Positions 33,127-48,324 of a stretch of DNA of 64,000 nt are shown here, in pieces. The stretch's first letter is position 1. Each line of letters begins with the position of its first letter. Under the pieces are notes generated by a model. The model had not been told where the DNA came from. It did not search any database and saw only the letters and a list, made by a program, of their open reading frames with translations. The position numbers and the translations under genes were made by a program. This DNA is from Myxococcales bacterium (GTDB lineage Bacteria; Myxococcota_A; Polyangia; Polyangiales; DASUME01), in the NCBI GenBank assembly GCA_047601445.1, contig JASGJH010000001.1:4032001-4096000 (forward strand). The letters run 5' to 3'.

Positions 33127-33690
33127 TCAGTGATCATCGTCGTCTTCTCGCTCGCAGATTCCGCCGTGACAGGGGCCGCGATCGCACTTGTGGCCACAGG
33201 CTCCGCAGTGCTTGTTGTCCTCCAACAGGTCGACGCATTTGTCGCGGCACGAGCTCAGTCCCGCATCGCAGGGGAGCGACGCGTCAGGATTCGCAGGGGG
33301 CTCCGGCGTGGTAGGCACGGACGGCTCGGGCGCAGAAGGCTCCGTTGGAATGGGCACCGATGGCTCCGGCGCGACAGGCTGTGTCGGAGTGGGCACCGCA
33401 GGTTGCGGCAAAGTCGACTCCGTAGGCGCACGGACGCCGGCGTCCGCAGATGGATGCCTGCCGGCGTCAGGCACGGGACTCTTGCCCGCGTCGACCTCGG
33501 TGACCGCAGCGTCTAGTTCGTGTGCCGTATCGTCGTCAGGCGCGGGCACACAGAAGCCGTGACTGCAGATTTGATCGACCTCGCAGTCTCGCTTCGAGGC
33601 GCAGCGCGGCGCCGGGTTCGCGTCGGCCGAGACGTGGCAACCTGCCAACGCCAGCCAACACAGCGCGCCTGGCCGGCATGTTTGCCTCAT
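33127..33690 (-). CDS. Cys-rich lipoprotein with Pro/Thr linker
   Basis: Lipobox LAGC; C..K.DC...QIC..GFC and CVDL..D.KHCGACG..C; ATGA-coupled to the upstream gene. Confidence 0.8.
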   Translation of the reverse strand: MRQTCRPGALCWLALAGCHVSADANPAPRCASKRDCEVDQICSHGFCVPAPDDDTAHELDAAVTEVDAGKSPVPDAGRHPSADAGVRAPTESTLPQPAVPTPTQPVAPEPSVPIPTEPSAPEPSVPTTPEPPANPDASLPCDAGLSSCRDKCVDLLEDNKHCGACGHKCDRGPCHGGICEREDDDDH

Positions 33691-34643
33691 CGCTCCCTCC
33701 CCGTACTGCCAGGTTCGAACGTCCCCCGAACGAGCAAGCCTGCGCCGTGCCAACTCGGGGAGGCCGCCACCTGAACAGGAGCGCGCACGCGGCGCTCGCC
33801 CACGTAGCCCCAGACCAACAGCCCTGCGCCCAATACTGCAGTGGCCGCGCTCGCGACGAAGAGTCCGTTGGCAATGCGGGCCCGCTGCTCGGCCTGTTGC
33901 AGCACGTCCTGGGCGCGCGCCGCGTCGCGGGAGTCCTGGATGTTCATCGCGGCGTAGGTTCGCTCGTCGTGACGGGCAGACGTGCCCACGGCAATGCCCG
34001 CCGAAAGGAGCGCGCCTGCGATGCCGACACTGGCCCAACCCATGGCGCGACGGGCATCGAGGTCCGTACGACGGGGCTGGGCGGGAGGAGTGGCCGTAAC
34101 GACGGGTGCGGCAGGGCGTCGAACCGGCGCGGATCCATAGAGCCCAGACACCAGCGAGCTCACGACTGCGGTGATTTCTGGCTCGGCCAGAGCTGCAGTC
34201 TCGGCCTGACGGGTCCGCATCGTGGGCGCGTCCGGACCATCCTGGGCCGACAACGTGATGCGATGGGCGCCCGAAGGGAGCCGCACGAGCTGACGAACGA
34301 GCAGCCACTCCGACGCTCCCGCCGCTGGCTCGCGCACGTCCGGTGCCAGGGTGTGCGCGATGCGGCCGACGCAGTCCGCGAGTTGGTCAGCCTCGCAGCC
34401 GGCCATCTCCGCGATCTCGGAGAATGACGTGGGCGAAAACTCCACCTCGAACGGGCCCTGCGAAGCAAGTGACCTTTCGAGCGCATCGTCCACGACGCGC
34501 GCAATCGCCACACCGGGGTCGCCTTGATCGTCTCGCATGACAATCAACGGACATGTTCCTTCGGCCCGGCCACGCGAGGCGCCCCCAAGCAGCAGCAACG
34601 CGAAGATCGCGAGCGCGACCCAGGGGCACGCACTATTTCCCAT
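33687..34643 (-). CDS. Exported/membrane hypothetical protein (myxobacterial type)
   Basis: Signal peptide; AGC....DC; two C-terminal hydrophobic helices and a G....G.F terminus. Start uncertain (34688 is an alternative). Confidence 0.68.
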   Translation of the reverse strand: MGNSACPWVALAIFALLLLGGASRGRAEGTCPLIVMRDDQGDPGVAIARVVDDALERSLASQGPFEVEFSPTSFSEIAEMAGCEADQLADCVGRIAHTLAPDVREPAAGASEWLLVRQLVRLPSGAHRITLSAQDGPDAPTMRTRQAETAALAEPEITAVVSSLVSGLYGSAPVRRPAAPVVTATPPAQPRRTDLDARRAMGWASVGIAGALLSAGIAVGTSARHDERTYAAMNIQDSRDAARAQDVLQQAEQRARIANGLFVASAATAVLGAGLLVWGYVGERRVRAPVQVAASPSWHGAGLLVRGTFEPGSTGRER

Positions 34644-34775: not shown

Positions 34776-35315
34776 TCACTTCACCATGCGGAAGCTCGGA
34801 TGCAGCAACCACTGCCGGAGCGCGCCCGGCGAGAGGTACACGTGGCGACAGGAGTCTCCGCTCGATGAGCGAGATTCCGACGCGAAGACACCGGGCCCCT
34901 GGAGAAGAGATTCAGCGTGTCGGCGTGCGCCAGGATCGCCCCCGAGGTCCACCACACCGTCCCAGCGTTCCGCGACGGCGCAACACAGCTCGGCCAGGAT
35001 TCGATGGTCCTGTTCCGCGTTGCAAGCGGCCGAGAACGTGAGCTCGTCGGATGGGCGAAAGCCGAACCCGCGCTCGACCTCCGCGAGCTGCTCCGCCAGC
35101 TCCGTGGGCAACAGGTACGGCTCGAAGCCATGGGTCCACGTGAAGGGTTGGCCGCCATCACCGGCGAGGAAGCTTCCCCCAATCGGACGCGTGTCGGTGA
35201 CCCAGAAGTCACGTCCCCGGACCGCGGAGGAGATGTCGCCCACGTCGGCCTCGAGACGAACCAGCTCTTCCGAAGACAGCGGACGCTCGAACAAGACGGA
35301 GGCAATCGGACCCAT
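34776..35315 (-). CDS. DUF6368-like protein
   Basis: GF.P.....SA.CN..QDH.IL..L, GVVDLGG and H.Y....LR.WL.HP.F.MVK, recalled as the DUF6368 pattern. Confidence 0.68.
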   Translation of the reverse strand: MGPIASVLFERPLSSEELVRLEADVGDISSAVRGRDFWVTDTRPIGGSFLAGDGGQPFTWTHGFEPYLLPTELAEQLAEVERGFGFRPSDELTFSAACNAEQDHRILAELCCAVAERWDGVVDLGGDPGARRHAESLLQGPGVFASESRSSSGDSCRHVYLSPGALRQWLLHPSFRMVK

Positions 35316-35519: not shown

Positions 35520-35628
35520 ACGACCGTCGTTGCGTCCGCGCGCGCTCGAGGAATTTAACGTGGACACTCCGAACCTCCTTCGAGACGATCGAATCCGTCA
35601 CCGCTTGGAACCAGGGGGAAGGTTCACC

Positions 35629-36474
35629 ATGGATCGTGCTGGGCGCGCCGGATGGCTTGCGCGCGCGTTGCTTTGTTTGCTCATCGGTGTCTCGGGAATC
35701 GGCTGTCACGGGTATCGCGACGTCAACCTGCATGGAGACGCGCACCGTCCGATCGGATGGACGTACTTCCCCAACCTGCGCCTGAACGTGGCCCCGCCCG
35801 AGGGCAAGTTCTTGCAGAGCGCCGAGACCACGCTGCAGGAGCTGCGAAGCTGGGTGCAGGACGCCCAGGACGCATCCCATCCGGTTCAGCTGAAGTTCTC
35901 CTCGAACGTGGAGCGCAAGCGCAATCCCTACACCTTCACGGGCTGCGTGCTCACCTTGGGTGTCGTGCCTGCCACGGCGAAGTGGACGGCTCGCAGCGAG
36001 TTGGTCGTCGTGGCCTACGGCGAGCAAGTGCATGCCCATACGGTCACCGAGCACGTGCGCGAGACCGTGGTGGCGCTCGGCGCCTGGATCGGGCTAGGCG
36101 GAGGCGGCGACACCGACGCCCGCGACGTGATGGAGCGCCATCTGTTCGACCGCAGCATGGCGGCGCATCGGACCGCGCTCTTCGACACCCTGCACAAGCA
36201 CGGGCAGGAGTATCTGGCATTCGTCAACGACGGCGGGGCCGAAGCCAATCGACGCTTCGTGCAGACGCACAGGAGCTCCCTGTTCCGTGAGCTCGCCGAG
36301 CAGCGTGCCGGCGAGGCTCCAGCGAACACGCAGGCCGCCTCTGCGCCAGAGACGAGCTCGTCAGCTGTGCCCGCCACGGAGAGCACGCCTGTTGTCCCCA
36401 CGACGGAGACGAGCACACCTACCACGCCCATCGAGTCGAACACGCCTGCCGCTCCCGCGACGGAGGCCATGTGA
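35629..36474 (+). CDS. Lipoprotein of unknown function with Thr/Pro-rich tail
   Basis: Lipobox GIGC; LTLGVVP internal hydrophobic motif; GTGA-coupled to the next gene. Confidence 0.78.
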   Translation: MDRAGRAGWLARALLCLLIGVSGIGCHGYRDVNLHGDAHRPIGWTYFPNLRLNVAPPEGKFLQSAETTLQELRSWVQDAQDASHPVQLKFSSNVERKRNPYTFTGCVLTLGVVPATAKWTARSELVVVAYGEQVHAHTVTEHVRETVVALGAWIGLGGGGDTDARDVMERHLFDRSMAAHRTALFDTLHKHGQEYLAFVNDGGAEANRRFVQTHRSSLFRELAEQRAGEAPANTQAASAPETSSSAVPATESTPVVPTTETSTPTTPIESNTPAAPATEAM

Positions 36475-38771
36475 ATACACTCGTGCGAAAGAGAGGGCTG
36501 TGTTTGCTGCGCTGGAGCGTCTGGCTAACTTGCTGGTTCATGCTGAGCCTGAGCGGCACGGCGATGGCGCAAAACGGAACCGTCACCGCGCGCTTTCAAG
36601 GCAGTCCGCAGCGTGATGGCTATGGATGGGCGACCGTCACGGTGCGCTATGCGTTCCTGGCGTGTCCGGGCGATCCCAACGTGCAGCTGGCCTTGGGCCT
36701 GGACAAGTCTTCGCTCTCCACCGACACGCAGTATTGGTACAAGGGAAAGCTCTATCAGCTAGGCTCGCCGCCGCTCCCGCTCTCGGTCAAAAGGCCTTCG
36801 TTCATCGACACGCGGGTCGTGGCGAGCATCCATCGCGCCGGACAGATCGTGGGCAACGTGAACCGAGAGGTAGGGGCCACCTTGGGCATGGGTTGCTTCA
36901 ACGGCGAGCTCAGCGACGTCATGAGGTTCCCGCCAGACGTCAAGGATCGCAACGAGTTCCTGCGCAGCATGGGCCTGAATGAACCCACTCCGGGTCTCGA
37001 GTCCCTGCGCAACGACGACATCGAGTCCATCATCGAGCGCGACCTGGCCGAGCAGGAGCGTTTGAAGCGCGAGGCCGAAGCCGCGGCGGCCAAGGCGGCC
37101 AAGGAAAAAGCAGATCAGGAGAAGGCGGCGGCCGAACAGGCCGAGCGCGAGAAGAAGGAAGCCGAAGAGCGCGCACAGAAAGAAGCCGAAGAGCGCGAGA
37201 AGCGCGAGCGTGACGCGGCGGCCGCAGGCGCGGCGGGAGAAGGTGCCGGAGGCGGAGGCGGCGGAGGCACGACATCCGATGTGCCCGGTGGCTCCAGCGC
37301 GGGACTCACCGATGACAGCGGCGGCAGCTCTGGCAGCGGAAGCAACGGCGACGTTCCCATCGAGTCGACCCCCGAGTACCAACGCGAGCGCTGGGAACGC
37401 TTGCAGCAAGAACAGCGCGAAGCGGAACGCGAGGCCGAGCAAGCCGAGCGTGATCGCTCACTCCAGGCGCAGATCGAGGCCCAGCAAGCACGTGAGGCCC
37501 GTGCCGAGGCCATCGGCAACGCGGCGGCCGACGCGATTACCTCGTTCGGAGCCATGATCGTCGCTGCCAACCAACAGCGAGAGCTGGAAGAGCAGCGACG
37601 CTGGGAGCGCGAGCAGCGCGAGCGAGAGGAACGCGAGCGGGAGCTGGCGGACCGCTGGGAGCAGGCCAAGGCAAGCCCCGACTTCGAGGGCTTCTGCACG
37701 CCTTCACTCGACGCCGCCGACGGACAGCTCGGCGTGGGCGACACCTTCACGGGATGGCACACCTTCACGGACTGTTTGACGCAAGAGCTTCCGCGGACTC
37801 CGAGAGATCACCTGCGCTTCAACGTGATCGAGCCAGGCATGGTGCAAATCGACGTGTTCGGTCGGGTCAGCCGCGTTGAACTCGTGTCGCCGCTCGGCGA
37901 GATCATAGTGGCCGAGCGGATGCAGAACGCGGACGCCTCCTTACGCATCCGCCGCCCCGTGGTGACTGGTCCCCACATGCTGGTGGTGGTCGGCGTCGAA
38001 GACTTGGAGGACGAGTACCGAGTGGTCGCCCAGGTCGCACCTCCAGCGAAGCCGCGCGCCTGCATACGGGGCAGCTGCGGCCCGCGTTGGCTCGAGACCG
38101 GACCCGAGTTCGGTATCCAGCTCAACGGGCTCTACGGCTCGACCCAGCTGGACGCCCAGCCGAACGTGCCCGACAACCTCACGGTGCCCTTCAAGCCCTT
38201 CGAGCCGCACTATTTGCCTGCCCTTCAGCTTGCGCGCCGCAATCCCAAGGGTAGCTGGGGCGGACGCCTGGGATTCGCGACGAGCACGCTGGACGCGCTT
38301 CAAGCGGACTCCTACCTGCTGCGCCTGAGCTCTCGCCTGACCGAATCCGAGATCCGCCGCAGCTTGCTGCGCATGGGCATGTTCCGCGATGTGACCGTCT
38401 ACAGCTTCGAGTTCGCCGACATGCACCTCTCCACATACGTCGAGGGAGCGCTCTACATGCAGACGCTGCTCTTCGGCGGCAAGGGCGTCGATGCCGACGG
38501 CGAGGAGCACCGGCAGCGCATGCGCTTCGCGATGTTCACGCCGGCGCTCGGCGTGGGCGCAGACGTGGCCTTGCTCGACGGCCTGATGCTCGGTTTCTAC
38601 GTGGGCGGCGCGCTCAACGTGGTGGGCACGGGCAAGTACATCGGCCAGGGCGGAACCCAGCGCAGCGAGGACAGCGACATGCGTCCCCAGCTCTTCATGA
38701 ACACCGAGATTCGCACCACCTTATCCTACAAGTTTGGCCAAGGTTACCGTGACCCGCTCACTGAAGACTGA
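36471..38771 (+). CDS. Large exported protein: N-domain, charged coiled coils, beta-sandwich, C-terminal beta-barrel-like region
   Basis: Signal ending TAMA-Q; EAKR-rich helices; Gly/Ser linker; alternating-hydrophobic strands near the end (LGVGADV, LGFYVGG, TLSYKF). Confidence 0.78.
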   Translation: MNTLVRKRGLCLLRWSVWLTCWFMLSLSGTAMAQNGTVTARFQGSPQRDGYGWATVTVRYAFLACPGDPNVQLALGLDKSSLSTDTQYWYKGKLYQLGSPPLPLSVKRPSFIDTRVVASIHRAGQIVGNVNREVGATLGMGCFNGELSDVMRFPPDVKDRNEFLRSMGLNEPTPGLESLRNDDIESIIERDLAEQERLKREAEAAAAKAAKEKADQEKAAAEQAEREKKEAEERAQKEAEEREKRERDAAAAGAAGEGAGGGGGGGTTSDVPGGSSAGLTDDSGGSSGSGSNGDVPIESTPEYQRERWERLQQEQREAEREAEQAERDRSLQAQIEAQQAREARAEAIGNAAADAITSFGAMIVAANQQRELEEQRRWEREQREREERERELADRWEQAKASPDFEGFCTPSLDAADGQLGVGDTFTGWHTFTDCLTQELPRTPRDHLRFNVIEPGMVQIDVFGRVSRVELVSPLGEIIVAERMQNADASLRIRRPVVTGPHMLVVVGVEDLEDEYRVVAQVAPPAKPRACIRGSCGPRWLETGPEFGIQLNGLYGSTQLDAQPNVPDNLTVPFKPFEPHYLPALQLARRNPKGSWGGRLGFATSTLDALQADSYLLRLSSRLTESEIRRSLLRMGMFRDVTVYSFEFADMHLSTYVEGALYMQTLLFGGKGVDADGEEHRQRMRFAMFTPALGVGADVALLDGLMLGFYVGGALNVVGTGKYIGQGGTQRSEDSDMRPQLFMNTEIRTTLSYKFGQGYRDPLTED

Positions 38772-38787
38772 ACCGCGGAGCGTCCTC

Positions 38788-40041
38788 GTGCATTCATCCG
38801 TCGCACTTCGTTCGAAGCTAAGGCTGTCACTGCTCGCGTGGTGGCTGCTCACCAGCGCGGGCTGCCCCGAGAGCTCGGGCTCCCCCGAGTACGAGTGCAG
38901 CGGCGCACAGGAGCTTTCGTTGTCCTGGACCAGCGCAGGATCCAGCTACTGCAACACCGGCTCACTCCTGCCGAACGCGATCCAGGTCGACAGCGACGGC
39001 GGTCTCTCCGCGACCGGCTGCAGCTTTCCCGAAGGCAGCCGTCTGAGCGAGGCCTGCCAGCTCGTCATCCCCGCGATCGGTGGGGGCGCCCAGTGTTCGA
39101 GCAGCAGCAGCTACGGCTACGGATCCGTCAAGTTCTCCCTCTACGCAGAGGGGCTGGGCCCGCAGCTCTCCGGGAACGAACCGATCGCCGACAACCAGGC
39201 GACCGTGCACATCGCGACGGGGGATGGCTGCTCGGCGCCCTATCGGGTGAGCGTCTCGCGTCAGATCCGAAGTCCCCAAACGTCCTGTGAGTTCGTTTGC
39301 GTGAACTACGGGGACTGCGTCGACAACGACGTCGTGTGCGACGGAAACCCCGACTGCGCAGATGGTTCGGACGAGAGCGACTGCCCGGACAGCTGTGGGG
39401 ACGCCAGCCTGGGATACCAGTGCAGCGATGACACCTGCGCTACGCGCTGCGACGGTTCCTACGAGTGCGCCGACGGTAGCGACGAAGATGGCTGTGAGAG
39501 CAATCAGGTCTGCGAGTTCAGCTGCGGCAACGGTGAGTGCGTTTTCCTCTCGCAACAATGTGACGGCTACACCGATTGCGCGACTGGCGCCGACGAGCGC
39601 AACTGCAACTCATCCTGCTCCACCCACCTGATCTGTGACGGCAGATGCGTGCCTCCGAGCTGGATGTGCGACGGCGTGTACCAGTGCAGCGACCGCGCCG
39701 ACGAGCGCACCTGCAACGGCTGCAGCTTGAGCGAGATCGACTGTGGTGATGGCACCTGTCTGGACGACCGCTACCTGTGCAACGGCATCCGGGAGTGCGG
39801 CACGGGCGCCGACGAACAGGACTGCGCGTGTTCGGCCGGCCGCTTCGAGTGCTCGGGCAAGCCCTGCCAACCAGCGGCCAAGCGCTGCGATGGCATCAGC
39901 GACTGCGCGGGCGAGGACGAGGTCGACTGCCGCTGCCCCACCAACACCTTCGACTGCGTCGACGCCTGCGTGCCACGGAGCTTCCGTTGCAACGGCTTCG
40001 TGGACTGCAACAACGGAGCGGACGAGAGCAATTGCCCGTAA
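38788..40041 (+). CDS. Lipoprotein with seven LDL-receptor class A repeats
   Basis: GTG start with GGAG RBS; lipobox SAGC; seven C..C..C-[DN]G..[DEQ]C...DE..C units from about 39286, e.g. CDGNPDCADGSDESDC. Confidence 0.92.
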   Translation: MHSSVALRSKLRLSLLAWWLLTSAGCPESSGSPEYECSGAQELSLSWTSAGSSYCNTGSLLPNAIQVDSDGGLSATGCSFPEGSRLSEACQLVIPAIGGGAQCSSSSSYGYGSVKFSLYAEGLGPQLSGNEPIADNQATVHIATGDGCSAPYRVSVSRQIRSPQTSCEFVCVNYGDCVDNDVVCDGNPDCADGSDESDCPDSCGDASLGYQCSDDTCATRCDGSYECADGSDEDGCESNQVCEFSCGNGECVFLSQQCDGYTDCATGADERNCNSSCSTHLICDGRCVPPSWMCDGVYQCSDRADERTCNGCSLSEIDCGDGTCLDDRYLCNGIRECGTGADEQDCACSAGRFECSGKPCQPAAKRCDGISDCAGEDEVDCRCPTNTFDCVDACVPRSFRCNGFVDCNNGADESNCP

Positions 40042-40086: not shown

Positions 40087-40800
40087 TTGCGCGGCAATCC
40101 TTTGCCAGGCCAACGCAAGTTCCAAGCCCCACGCGGTGGGACCGTCGTGCTCCTCGTGGTCGGACTCGCCATCGCCAAGCTGTATGTGCTGCGCTACGGC
40201 TCGCCCCTCTGGGCCCTGGTTGACGAACCCGGTGAACGGTTCAGCGAAGCCGATGACGCTGCTGGTGAGGTCCTCGAGAACCCGCTCGAAGTGGAAGCGC
40301 TCATCCACGAGAAACCTCTCGAGCACTGGCTCGGATCCATCGAAGATTCCCTGCGGCGTTGCCGTCCCGATGTCCTTAGGCGCGCCCAATTGCGGCCGCC
40401 AGCCACCACGGAGGCGCTCGAGCAGCTCGCGGGCGAACTCGGGCACCCGCTTCCTCCCGAGCTACTGACCTTGCTGCGCTGGCACGACGGACAGCAAGGG
40501 CGCAACTCCCTGGCGGGCTCCGACTACGATTATCTCGATAGCCTGCTGCTCGGCACAGCCGACATCGCTGCGACCCTGCAACGGCTGAGGGGACTGCCCA
40601 AGTACGAACGGACGCCCCTGGTGCCCATCATGAAGAGCGTCGAGCACTCCTACTTCATCGCGATGGACTCCGTAGATCCGGGGGTACAGTGCGAGGTGTC
40701 CCTGGATCGCGATGCCGGCAAGGATCCGTGTCTCGTGGACAGCTTGCAGCAGCGCTTCGGCGTGTTGGCCCTGGACCTGGCCAAGAGCTGCTCGCCGTAG
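40087..40800 (+). CDS. SMI1/KNR4 (SUKH) family protein with N-terminal TM
   Basis: LRPPAT...L..L..ELG..LPPEL..LLRWHDGQ. Start uncertain (TTG). Confidence 0.82.
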   Translation: MRGNPLPGQRKFQAPRGGTVVLLVVGLAIAKLYVLRYGSPLWALVDEPGERFSEADDAAGEVLENPLEVEALIHEKPLEHWLGSIEDSLRRCRPDVLRRAQLRPPATTEALEQLAGELGHPLPPELLTLLRWHDGQQGRNSLAGSDYDYLDSLLLGTADIAATLQRLRGLPKYERTPLVPIMKSVEHSYFIAMDSVDPGVQCEVSLDRDAGKDPCLVDSLQQRFGVLALDLAKSCSP

Positions 40801-41214: not shown

Positions 41215-41568
41215 TCAGTGTTCTGCTTCGAAGGTGTAAGTGCAGAGGCCGTTCTCGCAGGTCACCTTGCCGCTCCCGCATGCGGGAATCCGCCCCATCA
41301 ACGTGCAGCCATTGGGGCACTTGAACTGCGACTCCCACCTTTCCTCGAACGCACGGTTAATGGCGGCTTCGTCTGCTCCGTTCATGCAACTGCAGCACCC
41401 GTTGTGTACGAACACGCAGTCGTCGTCCTTGCTACACCCGCGATACTTCAGCATGCCGCGCTCCGACAAGGGGCGATCGTTCGGGCGGAACTCCGGCTCG
41501 TTGTTGCAGGCGGAGCAGGCTGCCGAGGCGAGCACGAGCATGGCCAGAGCGAGAAGGCGTCGAGTCAT
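41215..41568 (-). CDS. Small Cys-rich lipoprotein
   Basis: Signal MTRRLLALAMLVLASAAC; C..DDDC....GCC.C..G...AIN and C..G.C. Confidence 0.8.
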   Translation of the reverse strand: MTRRLLALAMLVLASAACSACNNEPEFRPNDRPLSERGMLKYRGCSKDDDCVFVHNGCCSCMNGADEAAINRAFEERWESQFKCPNGCTLMGRIPACGSGKVTCENGLCTYTFEAEH

Positions 41569-41675
41569 GAAGCGCCCAGCGTAGTGCCTCTCGCGTCCCA
41601 AATCACCCGGCGCCACCCTGGCCGCGCGCTACAACAGGACCTGCCCCACGGCTTACCTCGCCAGGACCACCTTCC

Positions 41676-44793: not shown

Positions 44794-45408
44794 TCACCGT
44801 GCGGGCGGGCACATCGCCCCGGGGTCGTCTGCGCATCCGCCGTAGCAGACCCACTCCTTGGTCGTGGTATCGCACAGGCACTTCTCGGCGTTGCAGGCGT
44901 AGTTGCAGGCAGCGTCCTGGCACTTGAAGGTGCAGCCGAGCGGCGCGGGCTCCACGCAGCCCGCCTCGGCGCAGAGATTGGCGCAGCAGTCGAGTCGTTC
45001 ACAGCCGGATGCGCAGATGGCGCCGCGCACGCAGATCATGCTGCTGCCACAGACGTCCTCCACGCACTGGGTGGGCGGACCGCATTCACAGGTCAAGCAT
45101 CCGTTGCGACTCAGGTAGGTCCAGCCCGGCTTGCAGGCAACGCACGCAGAGTGCGCGGGACACATGGTGCACTCCCCGTCGGTGCACAGCGCGCTTTCTC
45201 CACAATCGGTGTCGTCTTTGCAACGGTCACCCTGAGGCTGGCCCGCATCCACCTCGTCCGGCACCATCATTTGTCCGTCGAGCGCGGGCTTGCCAGCCCC
45301 AGCATCGTCCGCCGAGAGCAGCTCACGCGTGGGGCTGACGCAGGAGAACGCGAGAGGAAAGAACAGCAGTCCGAGCGGCCTCGACCAAGCACGTGCGATT
45401 GAACTCAT
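44794..45408 (-). CDS. Cys-rich lipoprotein
   Basis: Lipobox AFSC; more than 25 Cys including NGC.TC.C; ATGA-coupled to the upstream gene. Confidence 0.8.
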   Translation of the reverse strand: MSSIARAWSRPLGLLFFPLAFSCVSPTRELLSADDAGAGKPALDGQMMVPDEVDAGQPQGDRCKDDTDCGESALCTDGECTMCPAHSACVACKPGWTYLSRNGCLTCECGPPTQCVEDVCGSSMICVRGAICASGCERLDCCANLCAEAGCVEPAPLGCTFKCQDAACNYACNAEKCLCDTTTKEWVCYGGCADDPGAMCPPAR

Positions 45409-46409
45409 GGTTGCACCGCGGCATCGAGTCGAAGCCCCACGAAGGGCCCGTGCAGGGAGCTCACCAACTCGCCAAACGAGCGCGCACTCGGGCCATGGGC
45501 CAATCCCCCCACGGCCGATAACTCGAAGGCCACGGATGCCGCGCTGACGCGCGCCGAGATCACGAGGCTGCCGGACGCCACGGGAGCCTCGTAGCCCTTC
45601 CCCACCACATGCTCCACGTTTCCTCGCCCCGAAAGTTGCCCCTGGCCCACGCCGAGCTCGAGGCTCGCACAGGACTGCAGCACGGACTTGCCAACGCAGG
45701 CAACTGTCACCCCCGCATTTGCGGTGAACATACGCGCCCGGATCTCTCCGCCCGTGGTCTGCGTGGCGCCCTGCGCGAACGAGCCGCCCAGTGAAATGGG
45801 ACCGAGACCAAAGCGAACCTGCCCTCCGAAGAGCAGCGTGTCCTCGAGCGTGAAGAACACCAAGTGTCCCCCTGCGCCGATCTCGAACCAACGTGAAAAT
45901 TCCGTGCGCTGCCAGAGCGCACGCCGAAACGCACGGCGACGGCTCACAGTGGGCTCGGTGACCCACGCCTTCTCCCTTTCGCGCTGCGCGGAGTTGGCGT
46001 CCGTCTTGGGCTCCTGCGTCGACTCGGTGGGAGCCGTGGGCGCCTCGGACTGGGAATCTTGTCTCTCGCCTGCCCCGCCCGGAATCAACTCTGCCCATAA
46101 CAATGCCAGCGTTCGTGCCCGGATCTCGTCGGGTATGTCCGTCAGATGTGCGCGGGCGCTGCCGACGACCTCGCCTTCGCGCGTACTGACCTGGAGCTCC
46201 GTGGGCACCTCGGGTGAGCAGGCAAAGGTCGCCGTGAATCGATAGTCGGCTGCGCGCGCAGGCAGCTCGACCTCGAGCGCACTCTCGATGGCAGCGCGCT
46301 CCCAGCCATGGTCACAGCCGCGCAGCTCGAGCCCTACGAACGAAGCCCTGGCTCGATCGGCCGTGAACAACGCCAACGCAAGCACACCCAAGGAACGCGA
46401 GAGCCTCAA
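45405..46409 (-). CDS. Exported protein with C-terminal beta-strand-rich (barrel-like) domain
   Basis: TTG start overlaps the anti-sigma stop; signal peptide; ARTLAL..AEL; Gly-rich alternating strands. Confidence 0.72.
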   Translation of the reverse strand: MRLSRSLGVLALALFTADRARASFVGLELRGCDHGWERAAIESALEVELPARAADYRFTATFACSPEVPTELQVSTREGEVVGSARAHLTDIPDEIRARTLALLWAELIPGGAGERQDSQSEAPTAPTESTQEPKTDANSAQREREKAWVTEPTVSRRRAFRRALWQRTEFSRWFEIGAGGHLVFFTLEDTLLFGGQVRFGLGPISLGGSFAQGATQTTGGEIRARMFTANAGVTVACVGKSVLQSCASLELGVGQGQLSGRGNVEHVVGKGYEAPVASGSLVISARVSAASVAFELSAVGGLAHGPSARSFGELVSSLHGPFVGLRLDAAVQP

Positions 46410-47594
46410 GGGGCCTCACTCAAGACGAACGTCATCTGGCCGCGAAAGCGCCCACGTGGATAGCGCTCGAGATAGGCACGTGCGGCGCGCAATGCCTCGT
46501 CGCGCATGCCGCGGCGCTGCTCGGCCTCCACCAAGCGCACGAGGGCGTGCTCGGCCAAGGGAGCGTTGGGCACGTCTGCGACCAAGCGAAAATGGGCGGC
46601 GGCCAGATCGGGTCGGTCCAGGGCGTCGAGCTCGAGCTTGCCAAGGGTGAACGCCGCGAGTTGAGCCTGCGGGCCCGCGGGTTCTCGCCGCAAGAGCTCG
46701 CGCAGCCCGTCCGCCGCGCGCGCGGGGTCGCCGGCTCGACGCGCCGCATCGGACTGGCGCCACAGAATCCTCGCCGGCGGGGTCGACAACCACGCCGGTG
46801 GCCCGAGCGCCGCGCGTGCTCACGGCGCGCGCTTGGGGCGCGTGTGATCGACGCGATGCCAGCGCGGGTGAAATCTGCTCCTCCCCGTGTTCGTCCGCGT
46901 ACCCGTCAGACGTGGTCGAACGCGTGCGCGCTACAACCTCATCCGCAACCACGGACGCTGCAGACACGGGCTCCACATTCACGGCCGCTGCTGTCTCGAC
47001 CTCGGGGCTCTGCACCAGGATGCTCTTGCCCGCCGACAGGCGCACCACGCGCTCCGGCACGCGCTCGCCGCGCACGAGCACCACGCCACGCTCCACGTGC
47101 ACCCGCACCTGATCTGCCTCGCGATCGACGCTGAACTTGGTGCCCAACACCTGCACCGTGAGCAACCCCGCTTCGATGGACCAGCGCCGCTTACCGTGGG
47201 GCCGCACATCGAAGGTCACCTTGCCGCGTCGCAGCACCGTCACGAGCTCGGCGCCATCGTTCCGCACCACCTCGAGCTGCGCACCGGCAGCAAAGGTCAG
47301 CTCCGAGCCATCGTCCAGCGCATAGCGCACAGCGCTCGCAGCCTCTCCCAGACTCACCGGCAAGCGGCCTGCTTCGGCCAGCCCCAGCGGCGCTTCCTTG
47401 TCACGTCCGAGCCACGCACCGAAGGCCAGCACGACGCAGAGCGCGGCCGCCGCCACGGCCCAGCCCACGCGCAGCCCGCGCGCGGGAGCCTTGCGCTCTT
47501 CACGCAGCGATCGCCACACGCGACTGACGGCCAGCTCATCGAGCGCTGGCTTGAGACGTCCCACGAGACGAGGTGGCTCTTGCTGCTCAGCCAT
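46406..47594 (-). CDS. FecR-domain/TPR anti-sigma factor with +1 frameshift near 46766
   Basis: TM, L.DGS, G...FDV and V.VLGTKFSV (FecR). The TPR tail (AAFTLG, LAEHAL, YLERYPRG) is in the next frame. Its stop overlaps the next start, supporting 46406 as the true end. Confidence 0.85.
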
Positions 47595-48237
47595 CGCGCT
47601 CTCCTTTGCGCACAGTGCGCGCCAGGTACGTGTCGGCCTTGTCCAGACGGCGCTTCACTGCAGCCAGGGAGCAGCCACAGGCCGTGGCCACCTCCTCGAG
47701 CGAACAGCCCACGGCGTGCCGCAGGAGCCAGGCCGTGCGCTCCTCTTGCTTGACGCCCGCCAGCGCCCGCTCCACCAGCGCGAGCTCGGCGCGCTCGTCG
47801 GCGCCCAGGTCATCCATGGCACAGGCGGCCAGGTCCTCCGCGTCGTTCTTGCGACCGAGGCCCACCAGCTTGCGCAGCGGGTTCCAACGCAGACGCCTGT
47901 GCACGCGGCTGAGGGCGATCTGCACCAACCAACCACGCACTGCCTGGGGATCTCGGAGCTGGCCAAGCCGCTGAAACGCCAGAATGAAAGTCTCCTGCAC
48001 GACATCTTCCGTTTCGGCACGGTGCCGCAGGAGCCTGAGCGCCGTACCGGCCACCAGCTCGACGTGCCGACGGTAGAACGCCTCCTCGGCCCAGCGATCT
48101 CCTGCGATGACGCGTGCCACGAGCTCGGCCTCGCTGAGCCCCGGGGCGAGCCTCAACACGCCGGCCCCCGTGTCCTTGACGACGCGGGGGTCCTGAAGAG
48201 GCTCGACCAGGCTCGTTTGCAACGTTCGTTTGTCCAC
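47587..48237 (-). CDS. ECF RNA polymerase sigma factor
   Basis: EDVVQETF..AF, GWL..IA and G.SLEEVA..C..SLA.VKRRL. Start uncertain. Confidence 0.92.
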   Translation of the reverse strand: MDKRTLQTSLVEPLQDPRVVKDTGAGVLRLAPGLSEAELVARVIAGDRWAEEAFYRRHVELVAGTALRLLRHRAETEDVVQETFILAFQRLGQLRDPQAVRGWLVQIALSRVHRRLRWNPLRKLVGLGRKNDAEDLAACAMDDLGADERAELALVERALAGVKQEERTAWLLRHAVGCSLEEVATACGCSLAAVKRRLDKADTYLARTVRKGERDG

Positions 48238-48291
48238 CGGAGCCCAAGCGCGTGCGCGAGAAGAGGGGGTGACCCTACTGTGGATCGAACC

Positions 48292-48314
48292 GGTTCGGCG
48301 CCGAAACGGCTCGC
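48292..48314 (-). promoter_or_regulatory. Conserved 23-bp motif upstream of the ECF sigma gene
   Basis: GCGAGCCGTTTCggcGCCGAaCC; 19/23 identical to 49248-49270. Confidence 0.62.
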
Positions 48315-48324
48315 CCAAAGTGCA

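Follow-up and report, generated by a model that had tools for sequence, protein, structure and literature searches.

A predicted myxobacterial lipoprotein with seven tandem LDL-receptor class A modules

The LDL-A gene and its surroundings

The DNA analysed here (the window) is a stretch of 64,000 nucleotides from a Myxococcales bacterium. It contains a gene for LDL-receptor class A (LDL-A) modules, which is the third of four open reading frames (ORFs) on the same strand (Table 1). The gap between the stop codon of the preceding ORF (at 38771) and the LDL-A gene measures 16 nt. Promoter- or terminator-like sites were not detected between positions 35000 and 41500. The exported protein encoded directly upstream has two charged helical segments and a predicted C-terminal outer-membrane beta-barrel (feature score 0.96, TM of approximately 0.7 to outer-membrane protein barrels). 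No homologue of it was found in the database, and its gene was found in none of nine genomes of the same genus. The similarity of the downstream ORF to SMI1/KNR4 proteins is weak and lies below the cut-off. Other Cys-rich exported proteins in the window are encoded at 33130-34308 (-), with a STIG1-like match, as well as at 41215-41616 (-) and 44794-46098 (-). Judged by eye, the region 45405-48318 (-) resembles genes for an ECF sigma factor, a FecR-like anti-sigma factor, and exported proteins.

Table 1. Features in and around the LDL-A gene. Module motifs give the two residues ahead of the fourth cysteine (C4), starting with position -2, then C4 and the pentapeptide between C4 and C5.
Feature	Position	Strand	Remarks
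First ORF of the run	35530..36474	+	314 aa; lipobox-bearing; no known family; 4-nt overlap with next start
Orphan exported protein	36471..38771	+	766 aa; probable operon partner; database start 23 codons later
Ribosome-binding site GGAG	38777..38780	+	7 nt ahead of the GTG start; from sequence
LDL-A gene	38788..40041	+	417 aa; start GTG
Predicted lipoprotein-type signal peptide (residues 1-25) and lipobox Cys26, LTSAG-C	38788..38865	+	Prosite-style pattern
Orphan N-terminal domain, residues 27-166	38866..39285	+	140 aa; 6 Cys; predicted beta-rich
LDL-A module 1, V-V-C-DGNPD-C...DE	39286..39384	+	Canonical Ca site; -2 non-aromatic
LDL-A module 2, T-R-C-DGSYE	39394..39495	+	C3-C4 loop short; weakest match
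LDL-A module 3, Q-Q-C-DGYTD	39511..39606	+	Canonical Ca site
LDL-A module 4, W-M-C-DGVYQ	39616..39714	+	Sole Trp at -2; fifth position Gln
LDL-A module 5, Y-L-C-NGIRE	39721..39825	+	
LDL-A module 6, K-R-C-DGISD	39829..39930	+	One residue short after C5
LDL-A module 7, F-R-C-NGFVD	39934..40035	+	
Downstream ORF	40087..40800	+	237 aa; N-terminal hydrophobic segment; SMI1/KNR4 (SUKH) 22.6 bits, cut-off 25.4

The LDL-A protein begins with a basic n-region (R8/K10/R12) and a hydrophobic h-region (LSLLAWWLLTSAG), followed by Cys26. The lipobox LTSAG-C26 fits a Prosite-style pattern, with a non-canonical Ser at -3. The pattern match agrees with the original prediction of a bacterial lipoprotein; lipidation of Cys26 and a location at the outer membrane or cell surface are likewise predicted. 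The N-domain of about 140 aa that had been described behind the lipobox was also recovered. No homologue of this domain was found among 164 candidates, 300 other genomes of the order, the bacterium's own genome, and metagenome contigs. Six non-self matches were rejected as tandem-repeat proteins with summed weak stretches. A single-sequence AF2 model of the domain reached a pLDDT of 31.0, and comparison with Atlas models gave leads only (feature scores of at most 0.79, TM of at most 0.50), the nearest including lipocalin- and avidin-like barrels. The N-domain may be the functional part of the protein.

Residues 167-416 contain 42 cysteines (7 × 6), and all seven units match the six-cysteine pattern in LDL-A spacing. 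Cysteines of LDL-A modules pair as C1-C3, C2-C5, and C4-C6, and the same disulfides, along with bound Ca2+, are predicted here. Linkers between the modules are short (1-5 aa), and the protein terminates one residue past module 7. Against the Pfam family Ldl_recept_a (PF00057; curated cut-off 24.1 bits), the ORF scored 129.9 bits (E = 3.6e-38), with six stretches passing individually. The seven tandem modules proposed earlier are thereby confirmed, and all seven motifs quoted for them occur verbatim in the translation. Module 2 is the weak one, with three residues between C3 and C4 where about six are usual; a module profile trained on prokaryotic sequences detected all seven modules, module 2 at 14.4 bits. 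Every module retains its C3 cysteine and its DE pair. Among themselves, the modules share 30% identity outside the cysteines (mean 0.304), and no recent internal duplication was seen, the longest strong DNA self-match being 23 nt. The best PDB matches were LRP2, LRP4, VLDLR, and LDLR. The structure prediction suggested as a further check gave a pLDDT of 36.7 for the mature protein (single-sequence AF2), too low for a usable model.

The gene is native to the bacterium, as it is intronless, has typical codon use, and lies in the four-gene run on a single 9.5-Mb contig. Its GC3 is 0.837 in both halves (genome mean 0.809), its codon adaptation corresponds to the 72nd percentile, and GC is flat along the window. 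The contig context, which the original prediction had proposed to inspect for contamination, gave no sign of it. The genome is 98.7% complete and 5.43% contaminated by a CheckM-type estimate. It encodes a type II secretion system (T2SS) secretin and, by a crude filter, 172 coding-like Cys-rich ORFs.

LDL-A modules in prokaryotes and their origin

LDL-A modules are usually associated with animal receptors, proteases, and complement. Matches to PF00057 were detected in 18 of 61 relatives (including the bacterium's own genome), in eight of nine genomes of the genus, and in 44 of 251 genomes of the phylum, but in none of 14 control genomes. Searching a collection of species genomes with one eight-residue pattern returned 452 stretches; 222 of these were confirmed and 77 loci kept. 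Most of the loci are labelled Myxococcota or Deltaproteobacteria, and eight are from Poseidoniales archaea. Twelve pattern matches on viral contigs included no confirmed one. Before prokaryotic modules were counted, 10 of 80 rows were left out: one 1.2-kb contig and six intron-like fragments of one locus, both suspected to be eukaryotic contaminants, and three wrong-frame or unrelated entries. The pattern used for this count does not capture the archaeal form.

Among 62 prokaryotic ORFs with intact N-end, a lipobox was called in 42, an undercount given that several misses show one by eye, and the array ended at most 30 aa from the C-terminus in 53. The number of modules ranged from 2 to 29, and arrays of varied length sit on unrelated N-domains. 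Only one of the 62 has seven modules, so the parallel to the seven repeats of LDLR that had been drawn is a matter of chance. Of 53 prokaryotic LDL-A proteins scanned with Pfam, none matched an enzyme, EGF, or YWTD family; SRCR domains were seen in one and a secretion tail in one. Among 470 prokaryotic modules, 219 have C3 and 251 lack it, and thus six- and four-cysteine forms coexist, while archaeal proteins retain just two cysteines per module. The uncharacterised LDL-A lipoproteins of Myxococcota share with our protein the lipobox, a variable N-region, the C-terminal array, and a low frequency of the DxDxD pentapeptide (see below). Unlike them, it keeps the six-cysteine form throughout, and its N-domain is of a folded, Cys-containing type without homologue, whereas in many relatives its place is taken by a low-complexity tether or a helical Cys domain.

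Several individual loci were also recorded. The Poseidoniales loci (L060, L071, L083, L090, L095, L101, L103, and L104) encode very acidic exported proteins of approximately 900-1400 aa that contain numerous LDL-A-like repeats with two cysteines each (C1, C3, and C6 absent, C4 position replaced) and PGF-CTERM-like tails; the three that were tested score on both PF00057 and the glucosidase II beta-like family PF12999. The deltaproteobacterial locus L032:3-1328, on a 43-kb contig, combines LDL-A modules with two SRCR domains in an animal-like mosaic. The matches at L059 and L098 (genomes labelled Burkholderiales and Dysgonomonas) lie on short contigs and look like eukaryotic contaminants, L098 with an exon-like split. 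At L040 and L084, genes for four-cysteine LDL-A lipoproteins occur as tandem pairs 3′ of a HEAT-repeat gene. The bacterium itself has a second LDL-A gene at G000:C1:5384885-5385388 (-) (locus L001), encoding 168 aa with two four-cysteine modules, flanked by genes for an exported protein of 302 aa and a protein of 480 aa that has a HEFVH metallopeptidase-like motif; similar short proteins are encoded at the same-genus loci L026 and L027. A third, divergent LDL-A-like lipoprotein gene at G000:C1:4879999-4880919 (-), which the PF00057 search of the genome did not detect, encodes a helical Cys-rich N-domain as in many four-cysteine family members.

Some Myxococcota members are labelled 'LDL receptor domain-containing protein' in databases (e.g. 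P0020), and the protein described here is one member of this large class. In agreement with the original prediction, which knew of no characterised function for such bacterial proteins, searches of a literature collection with few subscription journals listed no paper on prokaryotic LDL-A proteins. One preprint (bioRxiv 10.64898/2026.06.07.730663) deals with a different Cys-rich repeat. The prokaryotic class is widespread, native, and apparently unstudied, and comes in three cysteine grades. It makes testable which role the module plays without the lysine-grip motif and whether the module arose in prokaryotes. The present gene is a clean representative of the six-cysteine grade, animal-like in form and from a genome in a single contig.

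A profile classifier placed the protein with animals (mean -2.1 bits). The score was positive for 22 of 24 bacterial proteins held out as controls and not positive for 50 of 57 animal ones. This result counts against descent from the bacterial pool, in a test biased by an animal set chosen for similarity to the protein itself and by 17 of 26 bacterial six-cysteine proteins falling into one cluster. Mean identity outside the cysteines was practically equal to bacterial (0.317) and animal modules (0.309), and linker length does not separate the two kinds of arrays (median 4 in both). The phylogeny called for earlier was built from 200 subsampled modules; the tree is poorly resolved, with 8 of 194 nodes at 0.95 or above, and the modules of the protein are scattered in it.

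The animal-leaning score, best sequence matches of the array to animal proteins (30-40% identity), and the contamination estimate for the genome would fit a mis-assembled or contaminating sequence or a recent transfer from an animal to the bacterium. We consider recent transfer unlikely, and the whole of this explanation has a minute probability: the gene is intronless, carries a ribosome-binding site, has native GC3 in both halves, and lies on one 9.5-Mb contig; the signal peptide is bacterial; LDL-A lipoproteins are present in genomes of the same genus; and identity to the two pools is equal, the animal set of the profile test having been picked by similarity. Other genes have been proposed to have passed from myxobacteria to early eukaryotes (PMC13012113; bioRxiv 10.1101/2024.11.01.621555). 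As a speculative scenario to which we give little credence, LDL-A could be a prokaryotic invention, its forms with one disulfide (marine Poseidoniales), with two, and with three (Myxococcota) being steps of a single series; the animal ligand-binding module would then derive from six-cysteine surface proteins of myxobacteria such as the present one, which would already serve as calcium-dependent receptors, here with a dedicated outer-membrane barrel partner.

Predicted calcium sites and the lysine-grip motif

According to the sections of Gettins and Dolmer (PMC3304490) used here, calcium is bound by the Asp residues at either end of the pentapeptide that separates C4 from C5, and the side chain of the middle residue is free for the ligand. 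The same sections link the grip on basic Lys/Arg patches to a pentapeptide of the form DxDxD and to a Trp close by, two residues ahead of C4; loss of the middle Asp costs approximately 7 kJ/mol, and DxxxD modules still bind lysine esters, weaker by about that amount for paired charges. None of the seven modules has the motif D-x-[D/E]-x-D. It was found in 54 of 116 modules of the LDLR family (17 matches carrying EGF or YWTD families), in 11 of 60 modules of proteases, and in 67 of 470 prokaryotic modules. By Fisher's test, the protein differs from the LDLR family (p = 0.018) and not from prokaryotes (p = 0.60), the modules being non-independent in both comparisons. Trp at -2 occurs in one of the seven modules (LDLR family: 57 of 116), and none pairs Trp with DxDxD. 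The middle residue of the pentapeptide is hydrophobic in five modules.

The canonical calcium pentapeptide, DxxxD, is restricted to modules 1, 3, and 6. Departures consist of N at position 1 in two modules, which is also seen in VLDLR-like matches, and of E or Q at position 5 in three. The -2 residue is aromatic in three modules, all with an altered pentapeptide, and non-aromatic in the three DxxxD modules. The four modules without the canonical pentapeptide could reflect decay instead of specialisation. Of the calcium-binding-type acidic ends in the original prediction, the DE pair is thus present in 7/7 modules, but the canonical pentapeptide in just 3/7. The proposed grip on Lys/Arg patches has become less probable in the light of these motifs, and with it the role as receptor or decoy for basic proteins; the acidity of the array (53 D/E vs 14 K/R) and the weak lysine binding of DxxxD modules leave some room for both.

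Possible roles of the array

With LDLR, VLDLR, LRP1, and LRP2, the protein shares the six-cysteine module, the C-terminal DE calcium ligands, and a tandem array distal to the membrane. The LDLR family has a C-terminal transmembrane helix with an endocytosis tail, EGF repeats, and a YWTD beta-propeller; here, a predicted N-terminal lipid anchor takes the place of the former, PF00057 is the only family found, the linkers are short, the N-domain is an orphan, and DxDxD is missing. The protein carries true LDL-A modules but is no member of the LDL-receptor family.

A closer likeness in layout was seen in nematodes. In eight of ten nematode matches, a hydrophobic segment at the N-terminus is followed by a spacer and by 8-9 modules at the C-terminal end. 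Of 65 such modules, 2 have DxDxD, 42 a hydrophobic middle residue, and none the Trp. One of these proteins is named Egg-1 by its source, and the others were grouped by layout. All were retrieved among animal matches resembling our protein, and the agreement is therefore partly built in. EGG-1 and EGG-2 share with our protein the N-terminal anchor, the spacer, and a C-terminal array poor in DxDxD and Trp with hydrophobic middle residues, and differ in having a transmembrane-like anchor and in being animal proteins. Homology to them outside the modules was not found. Convergence or a common ancestry of the module probably accounts for the likeness; being one of motif statistics and layout, it would support a similar way of working, not membership. 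C. elegans EGG-1/2 are described as organising eggshell and oocyte-membrane or surface proteins, with their direct partners still undetermined (PMC13042291).

Our preferred reading, to which we assign a probability of roughly 0.4, is that of a lipid-anchored envelope protein whose distal LDL-A chain acts as a multivalent protein-binding arm. The N-terminal lipid would anchor the protein in the envelope and leave the seven modules as a free C-terminal end, stiffened by disulfides and calcium. The chain might tether or space other envelope or matrix proteins, organising surface proteins much as EGG-1 and EGG-2 do, with contacts made by hydrophobic side chains beside the calcium cage instead of the lysine grip of the LDL receptor. 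The array occupies the free end, so it is no stalk for another domain, and the absence of DxDxD from all seven modules makes a tether or organiser of envelope proteins likelier than a catcher of lipoproteins. The outer-membrane-barrel gene 16 nt upstream, the T2SS secretin, and the 172 Cys-rich ORFs are consistent with such an arm. On the other hand, the nematode analogues were selected by likeness, share no detectable homology outside the modules, and themselves lack established partners; a scan of 104 out of 112 crudely called neighbours of prokaryotic LDL-A genes brought up no recurrent partner family, the barrel gene was not found in the nine same-genus genomes, and 4/7 modules depart from the canonical pentapeptide.

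Much of this evidence also bears on other explanations. Variation in module number (2-29) on unrelated N-domains, heterogeneous neighbourhoods, patchy presence in the phylum (44/251), the wealth of Cys-rich ORFs, and the one-disulfide archaeal form in very acidic proteins would all suit a ligand-free structural or near-neutral surface tail, rich in Cys and calcium, i.e. an acidic, calcium-holding coat element and one of many shuffled Cys-rich modules. We hold this to be possible but unlikely, in view of the retention of 42/42 Cys and 7/7 DE pairs despite 30% identity between modules elsewhere, and of exposed hydrophobic residues recurring at the ligand-facing position in five modules. Rather less probable is a receptor or decoy of the LDLR kind that would grip lysines of cationic ligands, be they basic proteins, antimicrobial peptides, or cationic toxins, at its calcium cages through the avidity of seven modules. 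Human LDLR module 5 lacks the middle acid, and is hence of the DxxxD type, yet is essential for LDL binding. Such a receptor would also fit the acidic array, the residual affinity of DxxxD modules for lysine esters (PMC3304490, sections used above), and the immunity-type, sub-threshold SMI1/KNR4 similarity of the downstream gene. Against it stand the lack of DxDxD, the absence of any module combining an aromatic -2 residue with DxxxD, the poverty of prokaryotic modules in the motif as a class (67/470 vs 54/116), and a YWTD/EGF release unit that was not found.

An orphan, fast-diverged N-domain with Cys-rich repeats, encoded 16 nt after an outer-membrane-barrel gene, recalls the logic of TraA/TraB: TraA, a myxobacterial surface protein, combines Cys-rich repeats with a variable domain and has a partner encoded in its operon (PMC13184517). 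By analogy, our protein might be a polymorphic cell-cell recognition receptor acting with the upstream barrel protein, an idea we regard as improbable. TraA belongs to another repeat family and is anchored at its C-terminus (MYXO-CTERM), whereas the protein studied here has no MYXO-CTERM, its predicted anchor is N-terminal, and its orphan domain lies next to the anchor; moreover, the gene pair was not found in nine same-genus genomes, and neither Pfam nor NCBIfam gave a match to the TraA/TraB families. The likeness is one of logic only.

A receptor for sterol- or lipid-carrying particles, tied to sterol synthesis by the host bacterium, is very improbable: LDL-A modules bind the protein part of lipoproteins, and the motif for that grip is absent. 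The lipocalin- and avidin-like barrels among the nearest Atlas models of the N-domain (TM of at most 0.50) would suit it, as would a cyclase encoded in the genome, whose best model is 2,3-oxidosqualene cyclase (710.8 bits, cut-off 851) and which passes the threshold of the general model for squalene/oxidosqualene cyclases. This cyclase, however, lies approximately 0.73 Mb from the LDL-A gene. Outside the genus, with presence scored at E < 1e-100, a cyclase occurs in four of nine genomes with LDL-A and in 10 of 42 without it, which is no significant association (p = 0.24). The gene of the probable 2,3-oxidosqualene cyclase is located at G000:C1:4800236-4802257 (+) (locus L107), and close homologues are present in eight of nine same-genus genomes.
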